Assembly (NCBI GenBank): GCA_040754615.1 | Contig: JBFMBZ010000081.1 | Span: 1-44,326 of the forward strand | Direction of reading: 5' to 3' | DNA length: 44,326 nt | Origin: Candidatus Omnitrophota bacterium | Lineage (GTDB): Bacteria; Omnitrophota; Gorgyraeia; Gygaellales; Profunditerraquicolaceae | Shown: positions 9,001-33,000 of the stretch, piece after piece | How positions within the stretch are numbered: the first letter of the stretch is position 1 | How the letters are laid out: the number at the start of each line of letters is the position of its first letter | Notes under the pieces: generated by a model | The model's input: the letters and a program-made list of their open reading frames with translations, nothing else | Database searches by the model: none | Told to the model about the DNA's origin: nothing | Position numbers and translations under genes: made by a program

Positions 9001-12000
9001 AAAAGTTGTCATAAGTTCCCCTGAGAGCAAAGACAGAGTTTCTCCGTTGCTTTCCTTATCTGCCAGTGTTATAAAAGTTTTCCCCTCTTCAACATATATA
9101 ATATGCTGGAGCCCCGGCTTATTCTTTGTCCCGAAAGACGCGCCTTCTTTATGGAGGTCGGTACTAATCTCAATCGCAAGCCTTGGCGATGATAAGATGC
9201 TTCGTCTCCTGCTTTTTGAAATCAATGCTAAGACTTCATCCTTCCATAAAACCGGCTCCCATCCTTCCAACGCCGTGAAATCCGTTAATGTAACCGGGCT
9301 GCCGGAAAAGGGGGAAGGTTCTGTTTTCTTCGGCTCTAAAGGCGAGCCGGAGTGGCTATCTTTCCAGTATTTTATTCTTATTATTGTTGCTGTTGTTTGC
9401 GGATGGCTGGAGTAATGCTCACTGTTCGCAGAGAAGATGCCGCGAGTAATTATCCCAATAACGGCAATGGAAAATGCGCTTATGCAGACTACCAAAATCA
9501 ATCCTTCCGTAAACGGCGAGGCAGCAATAGCTTCTTTAAGGGTTAGATTAATTCTCTGCGCACCTATGTCAGTGCGACGGCTTGAGCCTGCGCAAGGCCC
9601 TGCCGCCGGGTTTCTGTGTACAGCATTTCCAAGCAGTTGCGCGCCAAATGAACTCATCAGTTTAAGGTAAGCTAAGGTAATCAAAATAAATGGGGACGGT
9701 TCTATTTTCTTCGGCTGCATGTTTAAAATAGAAACGTCCCTTTTGAGTAGGCGCGGAAAAAAGAAGGCATTATTTCCTGGCAAAGAAACAGCTAAAGCAG
9801 AATTGTTGGCTTTGGTGGGAGACTTGGAACTTCCGGAATCTTCCCGCGTTGTTCGGGTAACAACCATACAGCCTAAAGGCGGAGCCCTAACACGAAGGAT
9901 TTCCGAGATAGGCGACCCAGAGCGCGCTTCTTTTACCCTATACCAAACATCTTCTCGCTCCTCAAAGCCGAGCCCAACAAGAACGGTAATGGCCTCCTCA
10001 TCAGAAAACCCTCCAGCATTGTATTGCCTAAGCATCATGCCCAAACTCATCCCAAATCTGGGGTTAACCGGGAAGTCTGAATTTAGCCTGGCTTTAAAAT
10101 CCTCTAACTCCCGTTTTTTAATTCTGCCTTTTTCCTGCCAAGCTTTTCTTCTTTCCGGATCAGTCAACAATTTTTCTAACTTTTCAGGGAGCGTTTCTCC
10201 AAAAATTACCCTGATCTTTGCTTCTTCCTCGAAAATGACTGGTTCGATCATCAAAGCTGTGTTGGCGCGACTTTTAAACCATCTATGCCTAGAAAACCCT
10301 ATTTTCTTTAAATAACTGATTTCATCATCCACAATTAACCAGTCGGTAACAGTTAGCTGTGCAAGTGCAGAACTGTCATCGGCATTCATAAACGGGTAGG
10401 AATCATGCATCATGACAACTTCCCTTGTTTCAAGCAATTCATGGAGAAGAGCAAACAGCAAAATAAAAGGGAATGATTGATTGTGCAGCAATACTTCTAC
10501 CTTAGAAATCACTTTATCTTTGCAGTCATAATGAATGCCTCCCATACCGCCACACATTGAGCCATCTGGTACTAAGCGATGGTTCTTATGAGGCGGTATC
10601 TCTGCCAAAGCTATTGTTAACAAAATATTTTTTTCTAAGAAAAATTTGAATAGTTCCGGGGCCTTTTTATTAAGCCAATTTATGATGAATTCGGTTGTCT
10701 TTTCCAGCATTAGATCGGGATTGCGGAAGAAAAATGAAATCGTCTCGTAGTCGTATTTATTTCGTCCTATTGCAGATTCGATTTTTTTACGAAGACTCCT
10801 CTTGTCTGATTCAGGAATTTTATTTCTAAATTCTTGGAATAAACATCCCGCTACCGTTTCCAAGGCGCCTAACCTATTTGCCTCTTCGAGATATTTTCTG
10901 TAAGAATCCTCTTCTAAAGAAGTAAACAACATCTGAAAAGAAGAAGGAGTAATTAGGGTTGGGCTGGAAGCGGGCGATCCGGAGGAATATCCGATACCTT
11001 CTAATTCAGCTATAAATTCTCTTCGCTTGTGTTCTCTTGCCATAGTAAATACCAAACGCCAATCTTCACTGGAGTCAAATTTCATACGGAATATGGCTCT
11101 CCCGTGGGAAGATTTATATTCCCAGTCATAGGACGCAGACATTATTATTGTATGCCTTTGTTTTGCATTGCATATGACACAAAACCCTTGTTTATCATAA
11201 GAAATCTCTATGCGTCGGACTTTCTTTTTCTTATAAGAACTTATAATTTGGCCAACTCTGAGATTAGGAGTTACTAACTCGTAGATTACGATTTTTTGTG
11301 CTGTTCCGAAAAACAAATTCGGAAGAGAAATTGAAAGGGCCGGCCATTTTACTGTGTCAAATTCAACTGGGAAAAGCGTCCTTCCATACCAGAAGCCAAA
11401 CAGCCTTTCCCTGGTCTTTCCTAATTCATTGTAAAACTTCTTTCTTTCTTGCTCAATTTCCTGCTCAGTTTTCGCTCTTGGGCGAGAAGTCCCCGTTTTT
11501 TTCCTTTCTGCTCTTGCTCTTTCTCCGGCATCTTCTGCCCTACTTACCGCACCAACCTGCACTCTTTCGTCATATTTCTTGCGCTTCTCGGGATCACTCA
11601 ATACTTCATATGCTTTTTGTATCGAAAGCCACTCGTCCCCTGCTACCCCCCCACTTTCTTTAATCCTGTCTGGATGGTATCTCATAGCGAGCTTCCGGAA
11701 TGCATTCCTTATATAAACTTCGCTTGCTTGCTTAGACACACCTAATACAGCATAATAATCCTTTGAATTAGAGAAATCTGGCCTAAGGAATTGATTCTTG
11801 CCAGAGGAAGATTTTTCTTTTGGTTTTTGTTTATTGAATGCCATGAGGTAAGATAAAGCCTGCTTTAACTTCTTGAATGAAACGGCTATTCTATTCAAAT
11901 ATTCTTCAAATTGCCTGGCTAATTTATTTCCTGACTGCAGGATAACCTCTTTTGCTTTGCGCAACCCTAACGAGGCATAATGATAAAAATTAAAGCTAAG

Positions 12001-15000
12001 AGGCTCTTTTTCAGTTTCGAATGCCTCTTCTGCTTGTTGCTCCTTATCGAAAGGCTCCTGACAGGAATAAATTCTGCTAATAAGTAAGTCAAGGGTATCA
12101 CGAATAGAAGAAGAATAATTATATTTGTCTTTGGCTGCTTTAAGGGCAGGTACAAAAACTGGCCCGGTTGCAACAATAATATTGGCGGCTTCTCTAAATA
12201 ATTCCAGGTCATCTAATGCTTCTATGAGAATGGGGATAGCTGCTTCGAGGTTAATATTCACCAAGGCCCTGAGAATAAGTATGCGGATATTTCGGTCTTG
12301 CTCTTTTTCCAAAGCTTCCCTGAGATCAGGAAAGAAATCTTTAGCTTTAGGGCCAAGTAGCCCAAGAGTTTGAATAACATTTGCCTTAAGATGCGAAGAT
12401 TCGCCTCCTAATGCTTCTCTGAAGGTTGGAAAAGCAGGCTCGCCAATCTTGACCAGCTCAAACATCACCCCATAGCAAACATCCGGTCCTTTTCTTAACT
12501 CCTTTATTAACTCCTGAATACGAGGATTCTCTTGCTCTACTACCGGCGAACCGGACACTTTTGTTACGATTAATTCGCGAACGCCTTCAAGACTCCAAGC
12601 AATTGCCCAGGGAGCCCCTTCTTTATCTCTGGCCTCGTCTCTCTTTTTTGCCAGTAAACGCACCCCGGGAATTCCGGTTTTATCCGCCGCTATCATATCA
12701 GAAGGCTCATCTCCTACAAATACCAGCTGCCTGGGGGGGATGTTTTTATTTTTTAAGAGAGCTCTTAATTTCGTTTCCTTGTCTGATTTTTCAGGGGCCC
12801 ACGGAATAGCTGTGCCGGTGATAAACTTTTTGAGCCCAAAATATTGAAATAGAGGATCCAAGATGTTGGAAGATATGTGCGACACTAAATAGATTTCTAT
12901 TCCTGCAGCACGGAGTTGTTTTAAAATCTTTTCTGCGCCCGGTGATGCCTTTACTTCGCTTGTCTCGATGTAATATTTAATCCATTTCTTTATAAATGTA
13001 TTAATTGCCTGCTCAGTCCAGCTTTTTATTCCCTCCCCGGCATTCTTTGGGGCTTCCCCATTCACCTCAATAAATTCATCAACGCGTTTCTGTCTTGCCA
13101 TTCTAAAAAGCTCTCTAATCTGCGCCAAGCGGGGAATTTTCCCTTCGTTCTCCCCCGCGTATTTTTCTCCCTCTGCAAAAAATTCTCGCTCTCTTTTTGA
13201 AGACGAATCATCTTTATTATAAATAAACTTTGCTTTCGTTGGGTCGTTGCACCTTACTAAATTTAAATAAAGCGCTCCCATAAGGCGATTGACAAATGGC
13301 CGTAAGTCTTTAAGTATCGTCCCTGCCACATCAAACGCTGCTACCTTCATATTCTGGGGCTGCCTGGATGGGTTGACTAATTCAAAGACCGGAGAACCGG
13401 CTTCGGAACTGCCCGAATTTGAGCCCTCTTCAATCTCCATTAATCTTCTCAGATTTTCTATCCTCTCTTTCACTAATAAATAATCAAGAAAGGAACCAAA
13501 TTTGATTATTAAAGGAGCTCTTGCCGTTAAATTTAATTTTTGTGATTCTAGATGCATCTCCAAAGTCTCGTCAATGAATAAGGAAAACTCTTTCCAGAGA
13601 TCCTTAAGGGATTGTTTAATCGGAGAGCCGGAAGTGGTTTCTCTTAGCCTGTACCAAACGCCTTCTCGCTCCCGAAACCCTAAGCTAATAAGCGAATCGA
13701 CGATTATTCCTTCAGAAAGCCCATCAGGATTGTATTTTCGGGCTATCAAACTTAAACCCATGCCTAATCCGGGATTGACGGGAAAGACAGAATTTATCCT
13801 ATCTTTAAAAGCACTTATCTTCCGCTCTTCCTCGCCGGCTTTCTTCTCCCAGGCCATTCTCTTCTTAGAATCAACCAGTAAACCTTCCAGTTTTTCCGGT
13901 AGAGCTCCTCCAAAAACTTTTCTTATTCTTGCCTCTTCTTTAAAAATTATTTCTTCAATTCTTCTGGCTACATGAGCGCACACTTCCGGCAGCTCGTTTT
14001 TAAGCTGTCGTATTTTCTTAAAGTATCCTATTTCCTCATCCGTAATCAACCAATCGGTAACGTTTAACTTTGAAAGCAATCTAAATCCCTCTAAAGAAAT
14101 ATTCGGGTAGGAACCATAAAGTTCAGCCACATTCCTTGATTCCAGCAATTCATGAATAAGGGCATACACGCAATCAAAGGGAAATACCGCTATATGCAGA
14201 TAGACATCCACCGCCGCAACTTTTCTTTCCTTAAAATTAAAATCAATGCTGGATTTAGCCAGGCACATTCTTCCATCTTCCATTAAAAGGTGGCCATTAT
14301 AATCAGGGACTTCTGTTAGGGCGATTTGTAATGAAATCCCTTGTCCATCAAAATAGTCAAATAATTCCGGAAATTCCTCCTTAAGCCGGCTTATTAAGAA
14401 TTCAGCAGTCTTAGAAATTAACAATTCCCGGTCCTGAAAGAAAAAGGAAATTATTTTGTAATCGTATTGATTCTGGCTTACGGCAGATTCAACTCGTTGA
14501 TGAAGCCTCTTTTGTCCTGACTCGGGGAGCCTCTCCAATAAATATTCCATTATCGGCTTCAAAGCGCCTAAGCTATTTGCCTGCTCCAAAAACTTTCTGC
14601 AGGCTCCTTCTTCTTTCGGATTCAACAAAATCCCAAAAACGGGCTGAACGATAAGAGAGGAGCTGGAGAGGCCCTCCTCAAAGAATACTTTTGCTTTTTC
14701 AACAGACCCCGGATACGGGCCAACCGCAGAGCTGGCCTTCTTTAAAACAAATACCGCCGGCGGCAAGGGGTGGAATCTACCTTTAGATATGCCGACGAAT
14801 TGCTTGCTCTCAACCTCAAGCCCAGGTAACTCAAATTCTTTCTGCCATTCTTCTTCGCTATGTAAGTTAGAGGCTAGCGGAATATTCGTGTTGCCCGTAA
14901 CTACATGGTTAGCCAGCCAATCAATAATAATTATTAGGTCTTTCAGCTCCCTGGGATCTAAATCCCTTAAATAATTAACCAACTCCTCTTCATTATTGAG

Positions 15001-18000
15001 CGGTTCTTGCTTTAATAAGGCATTCTCTATGACTATTATCCGTCCTTTTGGCTTGAGGATTCTTTTTGCTTCCAAAAGAATTAAATCCATAGCTTCAATT
15101 GCAGTTCTGGAGAGAAGGTCGTTTAATATAACTTTATCCGCGCTTGCTTCTTCCAGTGGAATATTACCGGGGGTTTCCTGCAGGATAAAAGACGTGTTAT
15201 CCTGGCCCCGGTATTCCGGGCCTCTATCGCGATAGTCAGGTATAATTGTTCCAATAAACCAGGTGTCCCTTATATTCCTTGCAATAGCAATACCCAATCT
15301 ATCGTCTTCGCACCCGATATCCGCGACAATATCACCTTCGGAAATTAGGCCTTTAATCATATTGAAAGTAGCCAGGTAACGCGCATCCGCCTTATAATTT
15401 GCATAAATTCCATGGTATTTGTTTTCCCTGCTAATCCAATAAAAGCCTCCCTTATAAATTGCCTGGCGTGCTTCATCTAAAGAATTACTCTTCTCAAGTA
15501 AAATATTAACCAGCTTTCTTACTTTTCTAGTGGGGATACCGAATTGCCCGTAGCCAAAAGTTAATAATCTTATCAGAGCATCCTGCAGGCAAGGGCTTCT
15601 CTCCAGGGATTCAAGCAAATCGCTTCTGACAAGAGGCGAACCAGAGCGGGAACCGTAGATTACATTTAACACGAGTTGCGTATATTTCGCTACATCTGTT
15701 GCATAGTTATCATATAAACCGAAGGGGTAATCAGGCAAAGAAAATTCCCCGTGAGAATCATTGCCTGGCATACCGGGAAGGACACGTATAGGATGACTCC
15801 CATAAAATGGGTGGGACATATTTAATTTTTCCACGTCAGATGAAAGGGCTTCCTGTAAACCATTATTTCTTACTTTGTTACTGAAATATTCCAGCCCCAG
15901 GAAACTGCCTGCCGGCAGCGCTCCATGAATAACCGCCATCGGGATAGCCCACTCCAAGATATCCTCCAGCGTCCCCGCGCTATTCACTTTCCTTTCATTA
16001 TCCCTTATCTCGTTAGGATGGGCGATGCTGAATTTTGCCTTGCTGATTTTTATGAAATCCAGCAGCTCGTACCAGGTAAGGTAATATTTTTTCTGCAGAT
16101 TATAGAAGTAATCATCAAGGCCGGTAGGCTTAAATTTCTTATACCAGACCCCCTTGGCAAAAGTTATGCCTTCTTCTTCTAATCTTTCTCTGTGCCTGGA
16201 AAACATTGCATCAGAAACCAGAGAGCCGTATAATCTTGATAATTTTGGAGACCGGTTTATTCTCTGCAAATCCTCCAATTCAACGCTCAAATCCGGGAAT
16301 CTTCGGTTGGCTTCAGCAAGCAATATTTCAACTGCTTCGTTTCTTTTGGCATCAAGCACCTGCATTTTATTTAAAAGGCCTCTCGATGCCAACTCCTGGT
16401 TTTTCTTAATGAAAGAGGACCTGAACAATTCGGGAATATACACTAAGAAATGCACCTCTACCCCAGCGTAAAACACCGTAAATTCTGCTCCGGGAATTAA
16501 TATTAGCTCCGGAATAAAGCTTCTTGAAAGTTGATTGAATTTAGCTATCTCTCCGTTAATTATCCTGACTGCCCGCAGAGCTTCCCAAGAGGTCAATACA
16601 TCGTGATTGGTGATAGAGAAAGCCTTTAACCCAAGCGTAAAGGCTAAATACGCTTTATAAACCGAGGTATCAAACCCGTCGCTATTGAAGTCGTGGCTGT
16701 GCAAATCGCACTGCCCTTCGCAGGGGCGCGGTAATTTAATTTCGGGCAAGACTATGGGCAAAATCGTCCGCAAAGCCCTTAATCTTAAACCTTCCCATTC
16801 GCTACCCACCACTCCTGACATAATTCTATTAGCGGCAACTCTTCTTACGCCAAGGCCTGTTGAATCTAAATCGGATTCAAGTCTATTAATTATTGCTGGA
16901 TCCCGAATAGTATGAGCCTTCCCATCTTCCACAGGTGAGGCAGCAATAGCTTCTTTAAAAGTTAAATTTGTCCTCTGCCCCACTGGAGAGCCGGATTTAT
17001 TACGGTTTAAATTGGACCCCCTAGATGAGCCTGGTAGAAGTATTGGTTCGAAAATGAAAGGAGGACTCGCATTTCCTCCACTTATTATGCTTCTTGCCTG
17101 CTCTATAAAACGTCTATCCCCCGCCTTATTAATGGCTCTTTCAAGTGCCCCAACGATCTCTCTCACATGCTGAACTTCAAGCTTGGTTCGCTCATACTCC
17201 TTTCGGTAGCCTGCATCCTTCCTAACTAAGGCATCAACTTGAGCATTCAGAAGGCTGCTTATTTCGTTCAAGCTCCTTATATCGCCATCTCTAATCCAGA
17301 GAAACCGCTTTTGAATAAGGGGGTCCTTCATCGCGTCTTCTGGCCCACTATAAATTCTATATTTATATGGGTGGACACTAAGCAGCCAGTTTGCGTGCTC
17401 TACTTCCTTATGTATTCTGCTTAAGCTTTCGCTTAAGTAAGCCTCCCCTAAAAGGGCTGCAAAGAATATTTCACTAAGTAATACATAGGGGCTGGCATGA
17501 GCAAAGTATTTCCTGAAAGATTCATCAACGAAGCCTTGATCCGGAAGCTCTTCTTCCAATAGTTCATGAAAGATAATTGTTAATCGGTTATGCCTATACG
17601 CGGAATCCAGTTTTGCTGCTCTCTCATAATTGATTCTATGAAAATAGGTTCCTGGCTTTATGATTTCGGGGTGAATCGAAGCGTGGAAAGGGAAATCCCG
17701 GATTTCAGGGGCTATACTATTAATATTCGGGATGGCGGCTAATAACTTTTCACTCGTTAATTTTCCTTTAATTCGATTTTTTTTCGCAAACCCGTCTCTT
17801 GCCTCTTGGACTTTTTGATAATCCCGCACCGTGAATATAAAATTTCTTGTCAAGTCCGCATAGCGTTTATCCTCAATCTCTATAAAACCGATTGCCCTCG
17901 CGAGCTCAAAGAAGTCCATTGCCATAAGCTGCTCAGCGGCCCCAATGGCTGACAATCTCTCTTTGGCCCTTCGAATAGCTGCTAAATAATCATCTCTCTG

Positions 18001-21000
18001 TTTAAAGGGATGGTAATGATTCCTGCGCGACAAAGCCGATTCGCTATCCTCATAATCTCGCTCTTCCATCGGAGAGCCGGAAATGTAACTTGCACTCCAA
18101 GAATCACTGTTTCCGGGCAGAATCCGAGAACCTGCAAAAATTGTATCTGCTCTTTGCGCACCTATGTAGGGTAGACGGCCTGTGATTGCGCAAATCACAG
18201 CCGCCAGAGTCCTGCCTACCCAGCCATTAAGCTGTGTGCCGAAGGTACTCATCAGCTTAAGATAAGCCAAGGTAACCAAAAGAAATGGGGACGGTTCTAA
18301 TTTCCCCGCCTCCCCTCTTAAAATAAATAATAGGGAGGGTTCTAATTTAGGCACGGAGCCGAAGAAAATATAACCGTCCCCATTATTCAAAGGCATAGAG
18401 TGGCGCTTGGGAAGAGTGCCTTGTGAAAATGGGCTGCTTGCGTCTTCCTGCTTTGTTGTAACATGCACAACCGCGCCGAAGGTAAGCGGGGAACCGGCTG
18501 AGAATTTAGCGCCAAGATAGTTAACAAGCTTATAATCAGCTCCGTCTTTTATGGCCATAAGAGCTCTAAATACCTGTTCGAGATCCTCAGGATTAACATC
18601 CCTTCCTCCTAAGCCATAGATGTAATTAACCAAATGCGGAGCCTGCATATTTGCATAGGCATCATGGATATCCGAAAAGAGAGGCCCGGTACTTTTTCCA
18701 AAGGATATGCTGCGATCTAACACAGCTATTGCTTTTACATTCTTGAAGGCTTCAACAATGGCCTGCGTTGGGAAAGGCCTGTAAACCCTTATCTTGAGTA
18801 GTCCGGCCTTTATCCCCCGATTGCGCAGTTCATCTATCACCATCTTGGCAGTGCCGGCTGTAGAACCTATGAGCACCATCGCCACCTCAGCGTCATCAAG
18901 ATGGTATGCCTCAAATAGGCCGTATTTCCTTCCGGTTAATACCGCATAGGCCTGACTTACATCTTGGATAACACGTAAAGTGTTCATTAAAAGCTCCTGC
19001 TGCTTAAGCCTGATCTCCATGCAATATGGCGGTAAGGCTACGGGGCCAAGAGTAATGGGATTATCGGTATCCAAAAGGTTGATGACTGGCTCAAATTCCC
19101 CGATAAAGTCTCTTACCGCTTTATCAGCAATTATTTTTGCAGGTTGAGCTTTATGGCTGGTAATAAAGCCATCCTGCCAGGACATAACCGGAAAACCGGC
19201 CTTTTCAGCAATACTTACGGCCATAATGGTATTATCGTAAACTTCTTGGGGATTCTCAGAGCAAATATTTATCCAGCCAGCGTCCCTGGCGCCCATACCG
19301 TCGGTATGGTCGCAGTGGATATTTAAAGGCGCATTTAAGGCCCTGTTTACCAGAGACATAACAATGGGCAACCTCATCGCAGCGGCAATAGGAAGGACTT
19401 CCCACATATAAGCCAGGCCCTGGGAAGAAGTAGCTGTCATGACTCTTGCCCCTGCCGCAGCCGCGCCGATACAGAAGCTCATTGCGCTGTGCTCGGATTC
19501 AACCGGGACAAATATCGTTTGTACCTCTCCATGAGCAACGAATTCAGCGAAGAACTCTATAATTAAAGTTTGGGGAGTAATAGGATACCCGCCCACCACA
19601 TAGGGGTCTATCTGGCGCATAGCTTCAGCCGCAGCAGCGTCTCCTATTAAGGCTCTGGTTGGAATTCCTTCCTCTTGCGGGTTAAATATTTTAACGAGCC
19701 CTTCCCTTTGCGGAATAACACCCTTTAGCTCATTGTGGGCTCTCTCAACTGCCCTTACGTTAGCTACGACAACTTTCTCAGGGAATTTCTTGGAGAATTT
19801 TTCTCGCATCTCTCTTGTAAGCGCTTCTATAGGCATTAATCCGGTTGCCTTCAATAGTGCCCCCAGCAAGGTTGTGTTGGGAACGAATTTATTAAGCTCA
19901 TCCATAGATATCATTGTAGCGTCAACAGTAAGGATATGAATATTCCTGCCATTTGTATTCAGTTTTTCCCTTAAGAGAGGCTCTTCTTTATTGGTATTTA
20001 TTAAAACAATCCCATCTTCCTTAATGCCTTCGCATACATCTACGATATCAAGAAGGGTATCATCTAAAACAATCACAACATCCGGAATTTTTACCTTGTC
20101 CTCTCTTCTAATAGGCTTACTGCTTATACGGTTAAAACCAAACATAGGAGCGCCTGTGCGCTCAAGGCCAAAATCAGGAAAACCTTGCGCAAAATAGCCT
20201 TCGTGAATTGCTGTTTCGGCTAAGAGCTCGGCAGCAGTCATTGCTCCCTGCCCGCCCCTTCCGTGCCACCGGATCTCTATAGTGTCTATTGGAGAGGCGG
20301 AAGATTGTTTGTCGCATAACTTTTGAAGCCCATCCCAATTTTTATCTATTTGTTCTTGGAGAGCGGAAACGATTTCCGGGTTTTTCTTAAGATGGCTGAA
20401 GCGGCCTTGCTTAAAGAGCCACTCATTCACCGGAATTTTTTGCTTTGGCGTATGGGTTATGCGCCAGATGCCATTTTCAACTTCATAGAGAGGCCAAATA
20501 CCACATTCTACTGCCTCAGCGGTTATTTTCATCCCCTCCTCAACCGGCGTTTTCCATCCACGAGGACAGGTTGAGATGACATTGATAAAGCTTGAGCCTG
20601 GAACATGTAGCGCTTTTCGCAGTTTAGTAAGCAAATCTCTCCAGTAGAATGGCGCAGCCTGGGCAATGTAGTCAATATTATGGGCAGCCATAATCTTAGT
20701 TAGATCTTTGCTTTGCTGGATTTTCCCAAAGATAACCTTGCCAGCGGGGGTAGTAGTGGTAGCTCCGCCAATGAGCGTTGCTCCTGAGCGCTGGTTGCCG
20801 GTATTTTGGTAGGCCTGGTTATTGTAGCAAATAGTTAAAAGCCTATGCCCCCGTTCTACAGCTCCTGAGAGGGCCTGTAAACCAATATCATATAGCCCGC
20901 CATCTCCTCCAAAGGCAATAAAGTTGATATTTTTCTCTTCGGGTATCCTTCTGCGCAGCTTTAAAGCCCTATAAGCTGTTTCTGTTCCGCTTGCATTTGC

Positions 21001-24000
21001 AGCTACGTTCGGGAATGCATTATGGATTAAAGGGACTCTCCAGGCAGTCTGGGGGAAAATAGTAGTAACTACTTCCATGCAGCAGGTGGCTACTGAGACA
21101 ACCGTATCCTTACCGGAAATAAGAAGCGCTAATTTAAATATTACGGGAGCAACACAACCAGGGCAAGCCCTATGGCCTGAACTTAATAGCTCACCTCTCT
21201 TAGACAGGCTTTTTAGATTTAATGGTTCATCAAGCGAAAGAAGCAAACTTCTTTCTTGAGGCAAGGCTTCTTTTTTGAGTGGTTCTGGTTTAGGTAGATC
21301 ACTTTCGGACAACATCTGTATTACCGGCCCGCCCTTAGCAGGGTCTTTTTTCGGGCACTGGGCTGCACAGATACCACAACCTTTGCAGTGGTCCAGGTCT
21401 ATTCCCGTAACTCTTCCTTCTTTTACCTTTATTGCCATGTCCGGACAGAAGAGCCAACAGGTTAAACAGTGAGAACACTTTTCAGGATTGAATATCGGGC
21501 GGTTGATTCTCCATGAGCCTGTAAAATAATCTTCCGCATTCCCGGGAGTAGAAATCAATCCGGCGTATTCCTGAGGGTCTAAGTCTATCGGAGAGCCCCC
21601 AATAGAAAAATCTTCCGGCCTAAAGTCAAAAGGCCTGGTATCTCGAATGACTTCCATAATAGGCTTGCTATCTTCAACGGCCTCAATAATTGGCCTTACG
21701 TGCGACTGCAAAGGCTCTTTTAGCTTCCCTAAAATTTCTCTTACAACCTTAACGTCAATTAATGCTGCAGTCGCAAGATGATACATTGCCCTGGTAGCCT
21801 CATTGTAATAGTCATACACCATGCCGAGATTAGCATGGGCTCTGGCATATTTAGGATCGAGTTGAATCGCTCGGCGAAAGACAACCCCTGCTTTTTCAAA
21901 GTCTCCTAATTCCGCATAAGCTGCTCCCAGGTCACTATTTGTAATTGGATTGTCTGGGAATATTTCTAAAGATGCCTTAAATGCTTCCACTGCTTCGGAA
22001 AATTTCTTTAAATTTAGGTAGGTTACTCCCATATAATAATAGGCCTGGGGGTCGCTGGGGTTACTCTCAATGATTTTTTGGTAACAGTCAAGCGCCTTGT
22101 CAAACTCTTTGAGAAGCCTATAAACCCTGCCGAGGTTATACAATATGTTATTATCGGAATAAAATTCTGCGGCCTTTTCCCATACCTTTCTTGCTTTTTC
22201 CAGATTCCCGGAGTCGCCGTATATGGCTCCGATAATATTGTAGATGTGGGGATTGAAGGCGTAAGAGGAATCAATTACGTTTATCTCCGGATAGGATGCA
22301 TTTAATGAGTCTTCGTCAAACTCCTGAATTTCCGCAGTTGAGAAATTACAAAGTAGAAGCTTGTCAGTTGCTTCAACAGGAACAATAACAAAGGAAACCC
22401 CCTTACACCTTGCCACCGCCGCTGCAAAGCCGAAGAGTTTCAAGAGAATATACGCTAATTGAGCTAAGCTGTAAGAAGTTAAATATTTCCCGAATTCCTC
22501 TTTGTCCTTCCTGGGAATTATTTCTGCAGCCTGTAATAAATCAATAATATCTCTTGAAACGAAGATGTCATCCGTAACAAGCGAATTTACAAGGCTCTTA
22601 AATATCGGCAAAAGGTCTTTTTGACTGAAAGAAAGAAACAGCTTCTCAATTGTTCTTTTTGCCTCTTCTACATCAAAGATATTTATGCCCTGAGTTTCTT
22701 TAAAATTAATTTCCTGTAAAAATTGGATAATTGCTTCTTTAAGCTGCGGGATGTTTTCATGCGGATAGCCTAACTCATAGAGTATCATTGTTAAGCCATT
22801 TTCATTTTCAATAGGCGAGCTGGAAAGCGCTTTCGCGCAGGGGAAAATAAAAAATTCCTTGCCTGCTGGTAATAGCGGAGGCCCGGTAGTAAATACCGAA
22901 CTTATGTAATTACCCAAAACAGGCAAGGTTTTTCTTGATAAGTAAAAACTGGACTTTGGACTTAACGAATTTAGCAAGTTGCGAGCTGACCTCCACCCAC
23001 CCGTCGTTACTGGTTTTGCCCTGGACCGAACCGTTTGGCTGAATAAGGAAGTCGAATTCATACCACCAGCTGGGGTGGTGCGCGAAGGCAAAGATTCCGT
23101 CTTTTCTGAGTAAAATCCGCGTAACCTCAAGGTCCTGGAAATGGTAGGTATTGAACATTTCATTACCTCCTGGTTAAAATTGTTATTAATAATTATAACC
23201 GGCGAGCCGGACTGAAGGTTAAACGCAGCTACTAATTCTTCTGCCGGAGGAAATCGCTCTTTAACTGAAATATCCGGGTTGCATTTTAGCATCTTCTCCT
23301 CTTTTTCAGGATAAAGGAGCGCCAAGGTATAAATTTTACTACCAGGAATTCTTGCCCGAACTTTTCTCGCTGCTTCCATCTCTCCGCAGCCATCTCCTAT
23401 TATTAAGGCATTGCTGCCGCGATTACCCGGTTCATTTAAGATTAATTCAATGGCTGTCTCCTTATTGAATTCTCCCTTAAATGACGGCCATGAAAGCGCT
23501 CCATAAACAGCCAAGAAATAATCCCCAAGGCCAAGGGCCTTAACTAAATCAAGTGTAAGATAACTGTTAGCGGTAAGGATATACTGCTTGGCACCCCTCT
23601 TGTGCAATTCTTGAATAAACTGCATTACTCCTTCAACGAGGTATTGGCTTAATTTCTCTTTCAGTTCTTCTTTGTTATCCTTAATATACTGCTTCTGCAT
23701 TTCAATGTATTCACCTAACCAAAATTCGGCATCGTGTTTCTTAGTAGTGCCATCCTGGCTCATCTCTTTGATGATATCCCTATAAATATCTATATCCGGC
23801 CGTCCGAGATGCTTCTTATAAATTTTATTGGCCTCTAAAAATTGTTCTGCTTCACCAAGAGGCGCATCATTAGATAAAATGCGCGCTATAATAGTTGTCT
23901 GCATATTCTCCCAAGCTTTCGGCGGGACTTTAAAAATAGTAAGGTCCCAATCCCATATAAATACCTTGAGCTGCCCCTCAATAGGCCGATGCACAGTAAC

Positions 24001-27000
24001 GAGCTGCTTTTCAACCGGCGAGCCGGCTTTCCCCTCTGCGTAGGGGGAGAATGAAATGTAGCGGGCCGCTGCGCAGAGATTCAGTTCCCACCAGCCACGG
24101 AAGGTAAACTGATTCCCTATAAATTCACGCAGCGACCCAAATTCTCCTGCAATATTATTCTCAATGCTGGCCGGAGAAGCGGAATTATTCAAACCCGCCC
24201 ATACCAAGACCATCGCAGTTTTTTGAAATGGAGACATATCATCTTCAAATACAGGCGTTTCTTGTAAAGTAACCCAGCCAAATCCTCTTTGAAGCAAAGC
24301 TATTCTTAAATCTTTCTTTGATATCCTAACCGCAGGAAGAAAAGGATGCTGATAGGAATAATCACAAGGATATTCTGTAATAAGCATTAACCCGTTTCTC
24401 TTCAGTAATGATTGGGAACTTACTAAATAAGATAAATCCAAAGAAACAAATCTTCCTTTTTGCTGCCAATATTCAAGCGCGCCCAAACATTCAGAGAATA
24501 ACACCAAATCAAATTGGCCGTTGGTTAACAGCGATTTTCTATATTTATGAATCTGCGTAGCATCTGCAGTTAAAGCGGAGATTCCTTTTCTTTTTAGGAT
24601 TTCAACGAAATCATTATCGATTTCAACTGCCTTAACTAAATGGCCTTCTTCTTTTAATACCTCCTCTAATAAGCCTCTTCCGGAGGCAACTGACAATATT
24701 AAAAGCCTTCTGCCTTTTGTTACATTTTCTATCTGAGCCAATAGATATTCCCGGTATGCCCCGCAAACTGATAATTTACTTAAAGCAGCGCTCTTATTCA
24801 TACTGCGAATCTTCTCTAAAATATTTCCAGTGGCATCTGGATCATTTATCGCAGAACTGGAATAAATATTTTGTCCTCGCTTAGCCTTACTTATGATTTG
24901 TTCTTCAGTAACCGGCGAAGCAGCTACGCCTTCATTAAGGAATGCCTCCAAGGCTACTTCAGGATAAATTTCAATCTCCGCAGAGCCGATATAATTGCTG
25001 ATTAACTTCACTCCCGGCATTCTTCTCCAAATCTCCAAATATTCATTTACCTGCACATATAATTTTAAGCTTGCATAATCGTTTTTAAGAAGATAGCTAA
25101 TCAACTGTTTATATAAGAGCTCCTCGTATTGCCTGTTTCTGTACTCTCTTCTCACAAATATCCAACTCACCTCTTTTTCTTCATAAGGACCAACGAGGAA
25201 CCCTCCGGCAAAATCTTTTGTCCTGTTATCAATTGCTACGGCTTGTATGTAGCTTTCTATTCCCGAAGGTATAATCATACAGGGCCACAAGGGATTCTCT
25301 AGATAGCATGCGTGTTCCAATGCTTCTAACTCCGGCCTGTCTTTTGCTTCCCTGATATCTATTCCGCTAAGGGCCCGGCTAAACTGGCGTAAATATTCTG
25401 CGGCAGTAATCCGTGCCTCCAATATACGGCTTAAACGCACGGCGTTTGCCTGATACTGCGCAAAATCACCCGGCCTTTGCCAATACACCTCTAAGGCCTT
25501 CATCATTGCCCGTAAATACGCTTCAGTTGTGCCGTCTTCCGGCGTAATGGTATTTCCTTCTCCGACCACATCATAATTTATTGGTATGCCCTGTGCCTGT
25601 AATAAACCTTCATTCCAGGGCGGGCTGAATTGTAAGCCGGCGCAGGCTCCGATATTTGCTTCTGTATATCCGGCAGCTTCGGTATTCTCAGCAGAATACT
25701 GAACCTGAACATCGGTTGCCGGCAATAAAGCCTTTTGCTGCTCTAAATTAAACCAACCCACTAACCTGAATACTCCCGGATAACCTTTCTTTGCCAGCCT
25801 CTTAGAAATGGCTTCCAAATGATTGTATAAATTATAGCTTTCTTGGGTCTCCTGCACTTTCCCGTAAATCACAACTTGTATTCCTGCCTTGACCAAATCC
25901 TCAATATCTGTTTCTGCAAACCTCACCTTTTCCTCTACGAGGCGGCCGGAATAAGAAACCACCGGCTTATTCGGGTCAAACCCTAACCTTTCTTTAGCCA
26001 CTCTCTTTACCGCCATTACGTGCTCTGCAGTTACATAATCATACTCTGCCTCAGGGAATAATTCTGATAATATTTGCCTGAATACCTTTGAAGTTGCCAG
26101 GCGGTCATCCCCGTTTGATACAGCGATAAGGTCCACATTAGGGTCGTATTTGTTTACTAAATCTACGTGCCTTGCCGCCACCCCGCCTCTCCAGTGGGCA
26201 GTGCGTAGCCCAGCACTGGTAAAATCTGTTACTCTCACACCATCATCGTTTGGATGCACAAACAATTTTTCAAATAGGCCATCAACCGGTATCTTGAACC
26301 TGTTTACTACCAAATCCCTTCCTTCTCTGTATTTAAAATACCCCCTGTTTCGGATGGTATGCGTAGTGTCCGCCAGCAAAGCGCCCTGCAATGCTATTAT
26401 CTCCCATTCTTTAAAGGCAAACATTACGCTTAAAGGAGCAAGTTGCGCATCGTTAATATGGATAACCGGAGGAAGCCACTCTTCGGGATGCGCGGAAAAT
26501 TCCTGCGCTTCTACCATGCTAATCAATTCCAGGGCGGCCCTTGAGAAAAACATAGTAAACTCTTCCATGGAAACGCGGTTATTCTGTGTATTGTAAGCAT
26601 AAAGCATATTGGTATAGTAAGCGCCTTCATCGCGCAAGAAATACCCTATAATTTCCGCAGGGGTTTTTCCTTCATAATCAATAACGCTGACTCTTTTCCC
26701 TTCTATGTCTATATCATATCTGGCAAGCTCTCTCATATCGGTTATGCCAAAGTTGGCGTAATTGAGCCTTTCTAACTGCCCCTGCTCATTACGGCCAATC
26801 ATATAGAAGGGCTCAATATGCCTTATTTCCAAATATCCCCCTGCCAATTCCTTCATTGCCGTCCCGTGATACTGCATTACTCTGCCTAATCCACCTGCCG
26901 GATTCCAGATCTCAGAGCTAATCTGCCAGAGCCTGCGGCCGATTAGCTTCGGAGCGTGCATTAACAGCCAGTCTGCGGGTATATTCCTGTCCAGCATTAA

Positions 27001-30000
27001 AAGAATTGCATCAATCAGCTCAAGCTTTCTAAGTTTGATATTTTCCGCCCTATTTAATAATGACACGATGCGCATATGCTCTTCTTTATTTAACAGGGCA
27101 ATTGCTTTTAAAACCGGATAACGCGCTTCTATGGGGTACCTGTAGCTTAATGTTTTAAAAGAATAATATTTGAGCAGCTTGATTAATCCGGGGTCGTCCT
27201 GGCTCCTGATTTCTGTCATTATCTCTTTCCAGCCCGGCAATGGCTTCTGTGTTAGCGCTGAAGCAGCCCTGCCCAAAGCAGAAGAATATAAATCAAGATA
27301 TTTCTTTGCCGGCGCATCCCAGGAAAAATCAGATGACATACCATTCCTTTGCATTACAACCCTTAATTCCCTGTTCTCAATAACCTGGAGAGCACCTCTT
27401 GTTGCCGCAAGCAGCGTCGGAGCATCAAAATCAATAAACTTAAACCCATTTACTCCGTGTTGGACAATCCCATCCAGGCCTCCGGTAGCGCGCACAACTG
27501 GAATTACGCCATAGAGCAAACACTTCAGCACATCCACATTGCAGGGCTCGTATTCAGAAGGTATCAATACTATATCTCCGCAGGAATACAGTTTACTGGC
27601 CAGGGTTTCGTTAAATGGCGTTTCTATATATATCCTTCCCGGATAAGCGTTCTTTAAATTCTCTAAGTCAGTGATAAACTTCCGATGGTAGTCCCGGCCA
27701 TCGCCTGTCCCCAGGAAAGCAAACTGGATATTTGTTCCGGATAATACTTCTTTTAAAACCGGCGGGATTAAATGCAGGCCCTTCTGCTCTACAATCCTTG
27801 AAATAACAACGATAAGCGTAGCCGTGGGGTCAATATTTAACTTTGTTTCTGCCTGGAAAGATTCTTTATTTTTGGGGCGCGCCTCACTAAAATTATCCAA
27901 ACCATACCTCACCGCTATAGAGGAATCAATCAAAGGATTCCACTTCCTGGTATCTATGCCGTTTCTGATGCCTACTAAATCATTCTCCCTGCTCAACAAA
28001 AGCTCCTGGAAACCATAACCCAGTTCAGTCCTCAGGATTTCCTTTGCGTATTCTTCGCTTACCGCAGTAAGCTTATGCGCGTAATTAAAGGCGGCTCTTA
28101 ACAAAGAGATAAATTGGCGGCCCTTGTCGTCTATATAATCTCTGAATTTATCCGGCGCAAGTCCCATTCCTGTCAAATACCAAAGCTCCTCAAGGAAATC
28201 TCCACGGTAACCTATATTATGAATTGTATGTATTGACCTGGTTTTCCTGAATAAGGGGTTTTGGGTTTGGTGCAGGTAAAGCGGGGCTAACGCTGTCTGC
28301 CATTCGTTGAGATGGATGATATCCGGGGATATTTCTAATGCATTGCATATCTCAAAAATGGAGCGCGGCAATATCACTGCTTCCTCAAACTGTTTCTGCT
28401 GTTCTTTTGTCCTGTATATATTTACAAAATGCTCGCCATCGTTTTCTATTAATATTACTTCCACGCCTCGGATGCTCTCTCTTGCAATACTGAATGTCCC
28501 TGTTTTGTTGCCAAGCGGTATATTTATATTAATGCCCGTGCTTCTTCCTGCCGTTACTCCTTCATATTTCGGCACTATCACATAGACTTTCTGGCCTAAA
28601 TCTACTAAGGCCGCGGATAACCCTGCGACTACGTCCCCTAAACCCGCCTCCTTAATAACCCCGCCCATTTCCGATGCTGCCAAGAAAATTTTGTGTTCCG
28701 GATATTCTATTGAGCTTGAAGCCTCGCGGGCTTTCTCCATAGCGCGCTGATAAACATTTTCATATTGAGGTATCCGCTGCGACCAATCTGGATTAAAGTT
28801 TATTACATAATTTAGGCACTCCTTAAATTTTGCCTCATCGTTAAAACGCATGCTGAAAAATTCTCTTGCTCTTTCATATGCTGCCCTTGCGCTCGCCATA
28901 GGGTCCCGGTCAAGCGGTGGAATAGCAAGAGCAGGGGTTCCATGGTTTTCCACGAAATCAATCAGCCCTCCTCTTTCCGAAACAATTACAATAACCCCTA
29001 ATGCTGCTAATTCCAGGTTAGCAATGCCTCCGGGCTCCTGCCTTGAGGGCATAAGGCTCAAGAATGAACCTGCGCCTATTTGTTTTGATAAGTGGTTATC
29101 GAATGTATTGGCAAACACCAGCTGGCCTTGATATCTTCTGCTTTCAACCAGGGTATTCAACCTGGCTACAAACTCTTCCCCTAATGTATCACCGGCTGTG
29201 CCAAGGATAGGAAGCTGAATCTTGGCATTTCTTACCCCCTCATGCTTGATATTTAATATCTCTTCTATTAAAGGAGGCCCACCCTGCCAGCGAGGAACAA
29301 ATAATAAATCCAGCCCTTTTTGCTTAACCAGGCGGCCTACAATACCCAACCCAACAGCATCAGGGTTAACTTCAAGCCCTAATTTTCTCTGTAGAGCAAG
29401 CATATTATCTATTGTCCATCCTAACGGATCATTCCCCATGTCAGGCCTAAACCCTTCTTTTTTGAGGGCAAGTAAATTCTCCGGCTTATGGTCCTTAAGA
29501 ACGATGCCGTTATAAACTCCGCCTAATTTCCCGCGCACTTCCCTTAACACTCCGTCTAAACCGCAACCACACTCAAGCGTAACCGCTTCTCTTAAATGTC
29601 CGTTACTTACAAAAACAATGCTGTCGGCATATATGAATGCTAATTTCATCAGGTTGTGCCTGCCTGCGATAGCCCCGCCCGGGAAAACCGACCAGAATTC
29701 CGCGCCAGTGTTATCCCTGGCATCCCTTAAACTCATTCTTAATTGGGTGAGCTTAAATAAATCCACCTCTACCTGGTCAAAGTAGTCTCCGTTATAAAGA
29801 TTTTCATATTTGCGTAAGACTCCGAGCTTAAGAAGATATAAAAAGAGCCTGTCCTGATAATACATCTTCATATACCCAGGGAAGACCCCCTGATATTCAA
29901 GGTTATGCGTGGTAAACAATGCTGCCGGCCTTACTCCCAGAGGCCATTTTTTATAACGGTAAAGTTCTTTTAGATAGGCAGGGCCAAGGCCTGTCTGCCA

Positions 30001-33000
30001 GTCATTAAAATGCAGGACATCAAACTGGATGCCTAATTTTTCCTGAATGATAAACGGTGCGCGTGACAATACTATTCCCTCAACATACCCGCCGAAAGAA
30101 TCCGGATGAGGCTGGCTGTAAAGTTTAACAAAAAGGTTTCCGCTCTCGTCATACAATAAAAAGACCGGGACGCCAAAGAAATCCTCTACATAAACGAGTT
30201 TAAAGGGGATGGTTCCCAGGCCGACAGGTATCTCTAAATTCTCCATAAGGACTGCTCCGTCATATGCTCTCAAGAATTCCTCTAAACTCCCGTAATTATG
30301 CTTTACATCCGCAGAGTGTAATGCTTTTAGGTTAAAAGAAGCGAAATCATGTTCTCCTAATACTCTGGGTAATTCCATTGTATAAAGCCCCTGCCCACCC
30401 CCCTTGCCGTCTACATGTTTTAACCTATTGCCTTTTTTGTCATTTAAAACCATCTCCATAGCGATAAAGCAGACGGCAATCTTGCCTGACTGCCTGGCCT
30501 TATTAATCCGCTCTATTATCCTGTTCTTTATCTTTTGATTTGTGTCAAGTTCTCTAAGGCCAGTTACCGGAGATGCCGAGCTGATGCGCGAAATGGTTAC
30601 CTCATCGGACTTACGGTATAGCCCGAATCTATCCTGCAAAGTCACTAATGCTGCCCGGGTAACCTCCACCTCGCCAAAGAATTCTGTGCGTAATCCTTGA
30701 GTAGCTTCGTATAGCTCTTTAAAATTATCCGGGCTGATAATATCTGTAATCCGGCCCAATGCAATATTGACTAAAGGAGTGCGCCTGCGTACGTCAGGGT
30801 AAGCCTCGGTGAGCCTTCTTTTTAATTCAAATATATTCTCATCGTAAACATGGCCCTCTACGAATAAACATCCGTCCGGCCCGAGATTCACCCCTTGGAA
30901 TATTATTCTTATCAGGCCGGTCCTTTTAAAGATTGTCGTTACCTTCTGGGACATTTCGTCATCTAGTTTCGGCGTAAACTCGGTTACCTGCCCAAAAGGA
31001 GTGTCATAAACAACAGCAAAGATTGTGCTGTGCAGCAAATCCCTGGGCACCGGATTAAGCGCACCGGATATCTTATTCATCATGTTGACGATGGCCGCCA
31101 TCTTATCAAGCATCGGGCCGGTTAAAACCGGGTCTTTAATAATCAAGGCTACGGCGTAATGGCCAGGATTCCTGAGAGGGTCAGGCGCTTTATTATTTAA
31201 AACCATTTCCCCGGTTTCCTTCCAGATAGAGGCGTAGGCATTCTCTAAGCTATACCTGTCTGTAACGGGCAGAAACCCGTTAATCGAAGAAGAGCAGGCT
31301 CCGGATTGCAGGTTTTCTCCTGCCTGTTTAATAATTTCGAAAGAGAGATGCATTGTAAAGTAATCCAGATGCTCAGTGATATAGCGCAAGGAAACATGCT
31401 CCACTTTGTAATATTCATCCGGAGGTGAAAGGTTATTATCGGCAAGCCATCCTGCGAGGCTCATTAATTCTGACGGGTCTTCTAATAGCGGCCAAATCGG
31501 CAAATCCCATAAATTCGGTCCTTTCCTCATAAGCCCCGCCATAGACACTATCTTTCCATCTGCTTTGATAGGCATGGCTATGCGGGCTAAGATATCTTCG
31601 GCCCTTTGGCCGAATAACAAGCCGTCTTTATTGGGGAGAATATCAAAAATGCCTTTAAATATTACTGCCCATTTAATCTTCCATTCGGGCTGTTCTCCTA
31701 CTCTTACCGGAGCAAAATTAACAAATTGATTCGCGCCTATAGACAATTTAACCCCTTCCGGGCTGGCCGGCACCAATGGCACCGTAAATACTGCAGAACC
31801 CTTCCCAATGCGTGAGCCGCTGGCAAGTTTAGATAAATAAATCTGAGCGCCTTCTTCTATATAACAGTCATCTCCTATTATCGTATGGTAGAAAATAGTG
31901 TTTTGGCGGACCGTTGAGTCTCCTTCTATAAACCCGCCCTGGATTAGCTCATCGGGACCGATTGCTTTCAGGATGATGTCTCCTTCAGTTAAAGAACGGG
32001 TGCTCCTCATCGCCGTGAAATAAGCCGTGTCGCTTCCGTAATCTGAATACATTGTATTTGGCCCTGCAACTTTAATCATATGTAATGGCGCCGGCGCGTA
32101 TGTCCTTAAGCCTTTCTGCACACGCTCCCAGTGCTGTGCATGGTAAGCAACAAAATCCTGGAGAGCCTCTCCTTCCAAAACCCTGCCAGCCAGTTTTTCT
32201 TTAAGGTATTGTGATTTGCTTTTCAGGGCTGCCGAGTACCAATCCGGAGAAAGATTTATCTGATATATAGGTAAAATGGCCTGCACCCTTCTTTCAATTT
32301 CAGCCGCCTCTTCCACTAAGCTTCTTAAAACTCCTTTATAGCGTGCAGGGTTAGAATCGCTCCATATTGTACTCGCGGTATTTGACATAATCTGGCGGCT
32401 ATATATTTTGTCGGAGCTAAAGCTGATTCCCCATTCTGCTTGATGTATTCTCATCTCGTCTTTAGAAGGCTTTTCTTGGAAAGCAATTATTTCATGGCCC
32501 TGCTCTCCCTTTGTCTGCCTTAATACAAACATACCTAAATTATTGGCTACTTCATCAATTGTGGCGGGGTTGCCAAAGAGGCTTATGCCGTCAAATACTT
32601 TTTCGGTCTCTGTAACCAAACACCCGTCTCCGTTAAATATCCCAATCCAGCCAAAGGGGATGCTCTCATTTAGTTTCCTTTGGAAGGTTTTTAGCTTGTT
32701 CATAAATAATGTGTGCTGATATATGCCGATGGAAACAATATCTATCAGGGTGAGCAGTTTTTTCCTTCTTTGCATCTCCTTTGCCAATCTGCCGTTCCCT
32801 AAATTGGCCATTATCGGCATGAGTACTTTTGAGGCTAAGCGTGCAGTAAATCTTGTGCCCAGCCCTCCGGCCTGTTTAAATACTACCCGCGCCTGCGCCA
32901 GCACTTCAACTATTTGCTCCCAATTCTCTAAAATCTGCGCTGCGGTAATATCTTCGGCGGGAATATCTGTGATGATGCCGTATTTTACCGCAATATCCCG

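Follow-up and report, generated by a model that had tools for sequence, protein, structure and literature searches.

Small genes that lie inside longer genes, on the same strand and in another reading frame, are known from a handful of systems. In Bacillus subtilis, the 46-residue peptide ComS, which releases ComK from MecA/ClpCP, is encoded out of frame within srfA-B, a very large multi-module gene for a non-ribosomal peptide synthetase; comS is confined to close relatives of B. subtilis. In the lysis cassette of phage lambda, the spanin gene Rz1 is fully embedded in the +1 frame of Rz: both products are made, both frames encode functional protein and the two products form a complex. Genes B in A and E in D of phage phiX174 are likewise same-strand open reading frames (ORFs) nested in another frame, both frames being selected. 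Such viral overlaps, in which both frames encode functional sequence, are usually put down to genome compression. To our knowledge, validated same-strand nested genes are otherwise mostly viral or, like comS, restricted to one lineage. Here we describe an 82-codon ORF nested out of frame in a giant multi-enzyme gene of a Candidatus Omnitrophota bacterium, on a stretch of 44,326 nucleotides (nt; contig JBFMBZ010000081.1, assembly GCA_040754615.1) that we call the window. Very probably it is a genuine, conserved small gene, for which the giant frame across the overlap provides only a spacer.

The closest functional analogue of this gene is comS, which it resembles in lying within a very large multi-module gene, in having its own ribosome-binding site and, as judged from sequence, in a synthesis that would be tied to transcription of the host gene. 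In contrast to ComS, its product is predicted to be a folded protein, of 74-85 residues, encoded in the giants of many divergent lineages with a mean identity of 37%; the hosts are multi-enzyme giants of tens of kilobases or more, and their frame supplies only spacer over the overlap. The closest formal analogue is Rz1, with which it shares complete embedding on the same strand in a different frame, as well as conservation among relatives. The lysis cassette, the two functional frames, the +1 embedding and the complex between products are features of Rz/Rz1 that are not shown for the nested gene. Unlike in small viruses, the host here is a cellular gene of extreme length, and compression is no obvious driver. 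Nested genes are a known kind of arrangement; what is new is the host, the depth of conservation and the host frame reduced to spacer.

No known bacterial genes are longer than the giants of Omnitrophota (bioRxiv 10.1101/2023.11.21.568195; bioRxiv 10.64898/2026.06.07.730766; PMC10066038). One class of their products has been described as the 'multi-enzyme metabolic cluster' (bioRxiv 10.64898/2026.06.07.730766). The window is occupied by one uninterrupted minus-strand frame of 14,775 codons. Its translation, a string of ordinary enzymes of the cytoplasm and of repeat modules, matches hexokinase, POR/PFOR (pyruvate:ferredoxin oxidoreductase) subunits, starch synthase with glycosyltransferase 1, UDP-glucose pyrophosphorylase (UDPGP), HAD hydrolases, inositol monophosphatase, methyltransferases, TPR, HEAT and DnaJ in Pfam. 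With more than 15 distinct Pfam families and more than 10,000 codons it qualifies as a multi-enzyme giant gene, and it fits the metabolic-cluster class, with which it shares starch synthase, glycosyltransferase 1, methyltransferase, HAD, hexokinase, HEAT and TPR in a single polypeptide. The three papers cited above mention neither nested or overlapping genes, nor Shine-Dalgarno sequences, nor frameshifts in the giants; a full-text literature search for Omnitrophota together with overlapping or out-of-frame genes returned nothing relevant, and we found no prior description.

The arrangement of the nested ORF and its surroundings is as follows (all coordinates are those of the window).

1..44325, minus strand: host giant gene, one open frame of 14,775 codons, with start and stop both outside the window.
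23211-23197, minus strand: junction motif SGSPV (TCCGGCTCGCCGGTT) in the giant frame, closing the upstream HAD-hydrolase module.
23197-23172, minus strand: AT-rich tract of 11.5% G+C, read V-I-I-I-N-N-N-F-N in the giant frame.
23197-23192, minus strand: TATAAT, within the AT-rich tract.
23196..22825, minus strand: giant-frame spacer of 124 codons, rich in Ser, Arg, Thr and Pro, stop-free, overlapping the small gene.
23176-23174, minus strand: TAA in the phase of the small gene, 18 nt upstream of its ATG.
23172..23165, minus strand: Shine-Dalgarno sequence CAGGAGGT, its AGGAGG core at 23171-23166 standing 7 nt ahead of the ATG; the giant frame reads Q-E-V.
23158..22910, minus strand: nested small gene of 82 codons, ATG at 23158-23156, TAA at 22912-22910.
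22834-22823, no strand assigned: GAAAGCGCTTTC, a palindrome of 12 nt without mismatch that the giant frame reads as K-A-L-S, immediately ahead of the SSSPI junction.
22824-22810, minus strand: junction motif SSSPI in the giant frame, opening the downstream TPR-containing module.

The small ORF lies wholly inside the giant ORF, on the same strand and in another frame, and is in this sense a nested overlapping gene. Relative to the giant frame it is read in +2, that is -1, so that the giant frame is the +1 frame of the small gene (reverse-complement frame 0 for the small gene, 1 for the giant). In the window the overlap occupies a junction-to-junction segment of its own (SGSPV to SSSPI), and similar S-S-P motifs flank many of the other copies presented below. 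The junctions, the AT-rich tract with its TATAAT, the in-phase TAA, the AGGAGG-7nt-ATG and the 82-codon ORF had all been located correctly in the initial annotation of this DNA, as had the open, Ser/Thr/Arg/Pro-rich main frame between the two junctions. That annotation left three readings side by side: an overlapping small gene, an intergenic region with a small gene bridged in the wrong frame when neighbours fused, and a frameshifted relic.

A phmmer search of 1.84 billion representative proteins with the 82-residue product returned 51 homologues at E <= 1e-3, seven of them at E <= 1e-10, the best at E 1.2e-15 with 45% identity. Most are 71-86 residues long, the size of a free-standing protein, and align almost end to end. 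These homologues came only from the exhaustive HMMER search: a word-indexed protein search with the same peptide gave no matches, and an exact look-up found no record of it as a called gene. The window protein keeps the invariant G47 and W54 of the alignment, along with the near-invariant W31, F37 and G43. AlphaFold2 models it with a predicted local distance difference test score (pLDDT) of 87.5 and a predicted template modelling score of 0.75 when given the alignment, and with a pLDDT of 77 from the single sequence; the predicted fold has five beta strands and ends in a long helix at the C terminus. The homology and structure checks suggested in the initial annotation thus leave the nested reading standing. 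Judged by these alignments, the small ORF is a member of a conserved, uncharacterised protein family, with no matches in Pfam or NCBIfam. Foldseek comparison of two models with PDB folds gave nothing significant (best E 0.18). RecA, considered as a relative from PDB profiles, was discarded: the match is weak and inflated by tandem-fusion chains, and a single RecA scores E ~0.9.

Two database proteins, P0050 (142 residues) and P0063 (148 residues), match the family in their N-terminal 45-65 residues only and continue in unrelated sequence; by eye, the end of P0063 looked like aldehyde dehydrogenase, while P0050 contains an FRGWW motif, to which we return below. Both are probably frameshifted or chimeric gene calls made at nested copies.

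The nesting itself recurs. On an unrelated 37-kb ENA contig (locus L001), the gene for P0083 is nested at 3459-3683 of the locus, whose plus strand is a single open frame throughout its 13,683 nt. It stands in the +2 phase of that giant frame, behind AAGGAGG, 7 nt and an ATG, and the giant frame across the ribosome-binding site reads K-E-V-E-K-C, as against Q-E-V-M-K-C in the window. The genes for P0084 and P0060 are nested in the same phase; those for P0077 and P0071 stand free, and stops interrupt both of the other frames there. In all, the sample drawn from the protein database independently of any pattern contains six nested and three free-standing genes (among the four members added later, three and one, respectively).

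To find further copies we scanned DNA with a hand-built degenerate pattern derived from W...[YF].F.[LIVMF]...G.[VIT].G[KREQ].....W..[LIVM]. Among GTDB species-representative genomes it returned 49 loci, of which 34 hold true family members (profile E 1e-18 to 1e-34); by their record titles, 23 of these come from metagenome-assembled genomes (MAGs) of Candidatus Omnitrophota (Omnitrophica) and 11 from uncultured Planctomycetales/Planctomycetia. All but one of the 34 lie inside an open +1 frame, usually spanning the whole 8-kb locus, and the +2 frame is never open. The remaining one (L056; 965-1300, reverse strand) has about 100 N inside the small gene and is uninformative; its small frame, running for 551 codons, had looked like an in-frame fusion until the run of N explained it. 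In JGI metagenome contigs, 15 of 15 family members are nested in the same phase. Clustering at 90% identity leaves 49 distinct nested genes, in loci of 32-59% G+C, and no other member is more than 55% identical to the window protein. Every nested copy has its own ATG and its own stop, each locus, the 44-kb window included, holds one copy only, and none of the giant frames examined contains the small domain in frame. Across 378 kb of host giants there are 48 ORFs of 45 codons or more that lie off frame on the same strand behind a Shine-Dalgarno sequence, and 42 of them belong to the small-protein family; the other six are junk-like, bar one in L014 that starts upstream of the open run of the giant frame. 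Gene prediction has passed by the copies that were checked: eight nested proteins from MAG loci of the GTDB scan (L017, L044, L015, L046, L033, L035, L054 and L032) were looked up among 15 billion predicted proteins, and all eight were absent.

The free-standing members (P0077 in L002-L004, P0071 in L005/L006 and P0086 in L106) have weak or no Shine-Dalgarno sequences. They stand in ordinary gene neighbourhoods of 46-51% G+C, beside secreted or lipoprotein-like genes, and none of their neighbours matches the giant frames. They may represent the ancestral state. The second reading of the initial annotation, a former intergenic region and small gene bridged by the fusion of neighbouring genes, is plausible as an origin because such free-standing relatives exist; it does not describe the genes as they stand today, since selection now acts on both frames, as detailed below.

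The nested genes carry translation signals of their own. The consensus 5' of the nested ATG, AAAGGAGGTG, is an extended complement of the 3' end of 16S rRNA, and GGAGG occurs at -17 to -4 in 40 of 48 nested copies, compared with 1.1% of background positions. Predicted mRNA structure is slightly weaker at the nested starts than elsewhere in the same loci (-9.15 versus -10.7 kcal/mol, p = 0.025). The proteins cluster at 74-85 residues and their genes end in TAA (19), TGA (15) or TAG (14). On these sequence features, the small gene has initiation signals of its own. Since the nested genes use all three stop codons, to a similar extent, stop-codon reassignment, which we had considered as a cause of the giant open frames, is ruled out; the off frames are moreover full of stops.

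Shine-Dalgarno-like elements and A-rich runs also take part in known -1 frameshift sites such as that of dnaX. As the small gene lies in the -1 frame, with an internal Shine-Dalgarno sequence and often A-rich runs upstream, its frame might be conserved without being independently translated, as the extension of a programmed -1 frameshift fusion, or else as an RNA or DNA element. We regard this as improbable, if the best-surviving of the alternatives. In the window, the -1 frame is closed just upstream by the TAA 18 nt before the ATG, so a frameshift would have to fall inside the stretch between the Shine-Dalgarno sequence and the start codon; between this TAA (23176-23174) and the ATG we see by inspection no slippery heptamer of the form X XXY YYZ. 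The nearest in-phase upstream stop is likewise only 4-6 codons away in 21 of 47 copies, and an ATG at canonical spacing begins every copy. As for an RNA or DNA element, Rfam has no match within the window, and the variability of the three codon positions, given next, together with the invariant Gly and Trp, bears protein-level signatures.

Nucleotide entropy at positions 1, 2 and 3 of the small-gene codons is 1.21, 0.98 and 1.58, the order 2 < 1 < 3, which points to a small frame that is under purifying selection as a protein. The initial annotation had allowed that conservation might turn out to be confined to the main frame; it is the small frame that is conserved, with a pairwise identity of 37%, compared with 23%, mostly forced by the overlap, for the giant-frame peptide. 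Variability peaks at position 2 of the giant-frame codons, which precludes conservation of the giant-frame peptide as a protein. The openness of the frame is another matter. When the synonymous codons of each nested gene are re-drawn by host codon usage, 177.6 giant-frame stops are expected across the 49 nested genes and none is found (joint log10 P ~-103); in a 37-gene set there are none against 132 expected, and for the window alone the probability of no stop is 0.0015. The deficit indicates strong selection for continuity of the giant frame. From these comparisons, selection on the giant frame across the overlap does no more than keep it open, and the string that looked like junk in the initial annotation is a spacer.

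A peptide that is not conserved could also mean that the giant frame is untranslated here, the overlap marking the boundary of two translation units and the openness being kept, for example, to hold ribosomes on a long transcript. The tract upstream of the small gene does look intergenic, AT-rich and with a TATAAT, and on two contigs gene callers start a new long gene directly after the small gene. We consider such a boundary slightly less probable again than the frameshift or element. With no stop in the giant frame, a translating ribosome would meet no termination signal, and the selection for continuity speaks for passage through the overlap. A promoter and terminator scan called no minus-strand sigma-70-like promoter where the TATAAT lies and no terminator downstream of the small gene, and the AT-rich tract is not kept in the other nested loci.

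Within the window, the length of the ORF and its Shine-Dalgarno sequence alone would not have been convincing. Where the initial annotation held a stop-free off-frame run of about 80 codons to be improbable by chance, it was mistaken: the longest such runs on this strand have 87 and 80 codons in one off frame and 83 and 81 in the other. AGGAGG occurs 21 times on the minus strand, four times with an ATG 5-9 nt downstream. What sets the region apart is its coding signal. We trained a third-order, 3-periodic Markov model on the giant frame and slid it along in 249-nt windows; of these 1,470 windows, 1,464 favour that frame (mean +46.7, standard deviation 11.3 nats). All six exceptions fall within 23203-22805, and the lowest of them, at -22.6, is about 6 standard deviations from the mean; a codon-usage score agrees in placing a frame switch here. 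Nowhere else in the 44 kb does the giant frame lose such a frame-specific test of coding. The nested ORF is favoured in its own frame by 23 nats; at the seven other longest off-frame runs, the giant frame is favoured by 11-25 nats and there is no Shine-Dalgarno sequence. Within the 14,775-residue translation, no other part resembles either the small protein or the giant-frame spacer.

A giant frame that is of low complexity here and loses the coding test, in a window where off-frame runs of such length arise by chance, is also what a frameshifted relic or an assembly artefact would give, two compensating indels leaving a wrong frame that happens to be stop-free. This third reading of the initial annotation is rejected as very improbable. 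The ORF is of full length and retains the invariant residues, and every copy has its own start and stop; in the window the ORF is bounded by an in-phase upstream stop, a Shine-Dalgarno sequence, an ATG and a stop, and it matches proteins of free-standing size end to end. The same layout is found in 49 distinct genes from independent assemblies made with different sequencing methods, the entropies of the codon positions bespeak ongoing purifying selection, and no giant has an in-frame copy of the domain, the lone apparent case being the one with a run of N. Finally, a chance ORF within a genuine disordered linker of the giant protein, a thought prompted by the commonness of Ser/Thr/Pro/Arg-rich linkers in multidomain proteins and by the unremarkable length of the ORF and its AGGAGG-ATG pair, is scarcely credible in the face of homologues at E 1e-15, a confident predicted fold, 49 giant genes and the sole frame flip in 44 kb.

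The overlapping small gene, the first of the three readings, is thereby supported by its homologues, its predicted fold, the purifying selection on its frame and the 49 giants that hold it in the same phase. Several points weigh against it. Expression of the nested gene is read from sequence, in the window as in its relatives. The small protein has no curated family or structural neighbour, and its function and its link with the giant protein are conjecture. In the window, the alternative frame scores about 3 standard deviations below typical coding sequence of the giant (-1.38 versus -1.286 +/- 0.028 nats per base); two frames constrained at once should give such a score, yet it also fits a foreign or decaying gene. 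The copies are related by descent, so the joint probability given above overstates their independence, although at a mean protein identity of 37% synonymous sites are saturated. The scan pattern was built partly from nested members, and free-standing relatives may be under-sampled as a result. In the analysis itself, the affiliation of the window with Omnitrophota was judged from the origin of the relatives and from the architecture of the gene. Lastly, no partner domain is indicated: in a comparison of 16 loci, each has other giant-frame domains within 560 residues on either side of the nested gene. Among them are FBPase, glutamate dehydrogenase, SIS, ARMT1-like with Fic, peptidase M20, a PEP-utilising enzyme, HD with RelA/SpoT, and GGDEF; elsewhere no domain could be recognised. 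As the flanking domains vary, the association is with the type of giant gene and not with a particular neighbouring module.

We propose the following scheme for the nested gene. One messenger of the giant gene would carry both reading frames. Elongating ribosomes would read through in the giant frame, making the 124-residue spacer, rich in Ser, Arg, Thr and Pro, between junctions of the SGSP type; other ribosomes would initiate at the internal AGGAGG-7nt-ATG and release a separate, free small protein. Made from the messenger of the giant, the small protein would have its synthesis tied to transcription of the giant gene. Internal initiation, read-through in the giant frame and joint action of the small and giant proteins are all inferred here. 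As a working guess, the small protein may partner the giant protein in free form, for instance as an assembly or regulatory factor, and would have to stay untethered. More tentatively, at somewhat less than even confidence, the cassette could be an ancient hallmark of Omnitrophota multi-enzyme giants, of single origin, with the small protein as a dedicated free partner, serving for example in assembly, quality control or regulation, that has to be made apart from the giant yet in step with its transcript.

Some further features of the giant frames were noted. The junction motif, [SGA][SGA]SP[VILM], occurs 27 times in the window, against 0.44 expected from shuffles (29 sites in a looser form), and separates the modules of the giant protein; other minus-strand examples lie at 20301-20287, 8469-8455 and 7542-7528. 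The motif is enriched in some other giants (10 in L015, 7 each in L011 and L013), and many giants lack it. Candidate explanations are a linker, a processing site and a recombination scar. It is often spelled with the same nucleotides as at the SGSPV junction, which suggests a constraint at the level of DNA or RNA, or a recent spread. The ferredoxin-like, TPP-binding, gamma and alpha/domain-II parts of PFOR, normally separate subunits, are fused in one minus-strand frame at about 21600-17500 and linked by junction motifs, for instance SSASPI at 20301 between the TPP-binding and gamma parts. Strings nearly identical to the palindrome at 22834-22823, GAAAACGCTTTC, reading K-T-L-S with the same synonymous choices, adjoin the nested genes of unrelated loci (L001, L012, L023, L034 and L046).

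A giant-frame motif, [ST]FRGWW[GE], is represented in the window by FRGWW at 24102-24088, about 300 residues upstream of the nested gene, and is also found near the nested gene in L001, L048, L051, L031, L032 and L011. Hydrophobic stretches resembling transmembrane helices lie upstream of the nested gene in L017, L007, L022, L038, L035, L012 and L014, and downstream of it in L044, L038 and L025; in these loci the Arg/Lys/Ser-rich spacer might be a loop between membrane spans. In the window, no such stretches flank the spacer. A 790-residue query taken across the region in the giant frame matched generic TPR proteins only, none of them a relative of the giant, and a flanking giant-frame segment had no relatives in the genomes, metagenomes and viral contigs searched.

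The nested gene adds a deeply conserved cellular case to the short list of validated same-strand nested genes. It also reveals a blind spot in annotation, as gene callers that accept the giant ORF do not report the gene within it. If the cassette is indeed an ancient hallmark of these giants, a gene family spanning the phylum would have been hidden because gene callers discard an ORF that falls within a longer one of the same strand. The absence of stops where about 178 are expected is an independent argument that the continuity of these enormous frames is selected and is not a curiosity of annotation. Altogether, a separately translated gene inside the giants would offer a first handle on giant-gene biology and a conserved landmark within them: the small protein can be sought in existing proteomes, expressed and used as bait.

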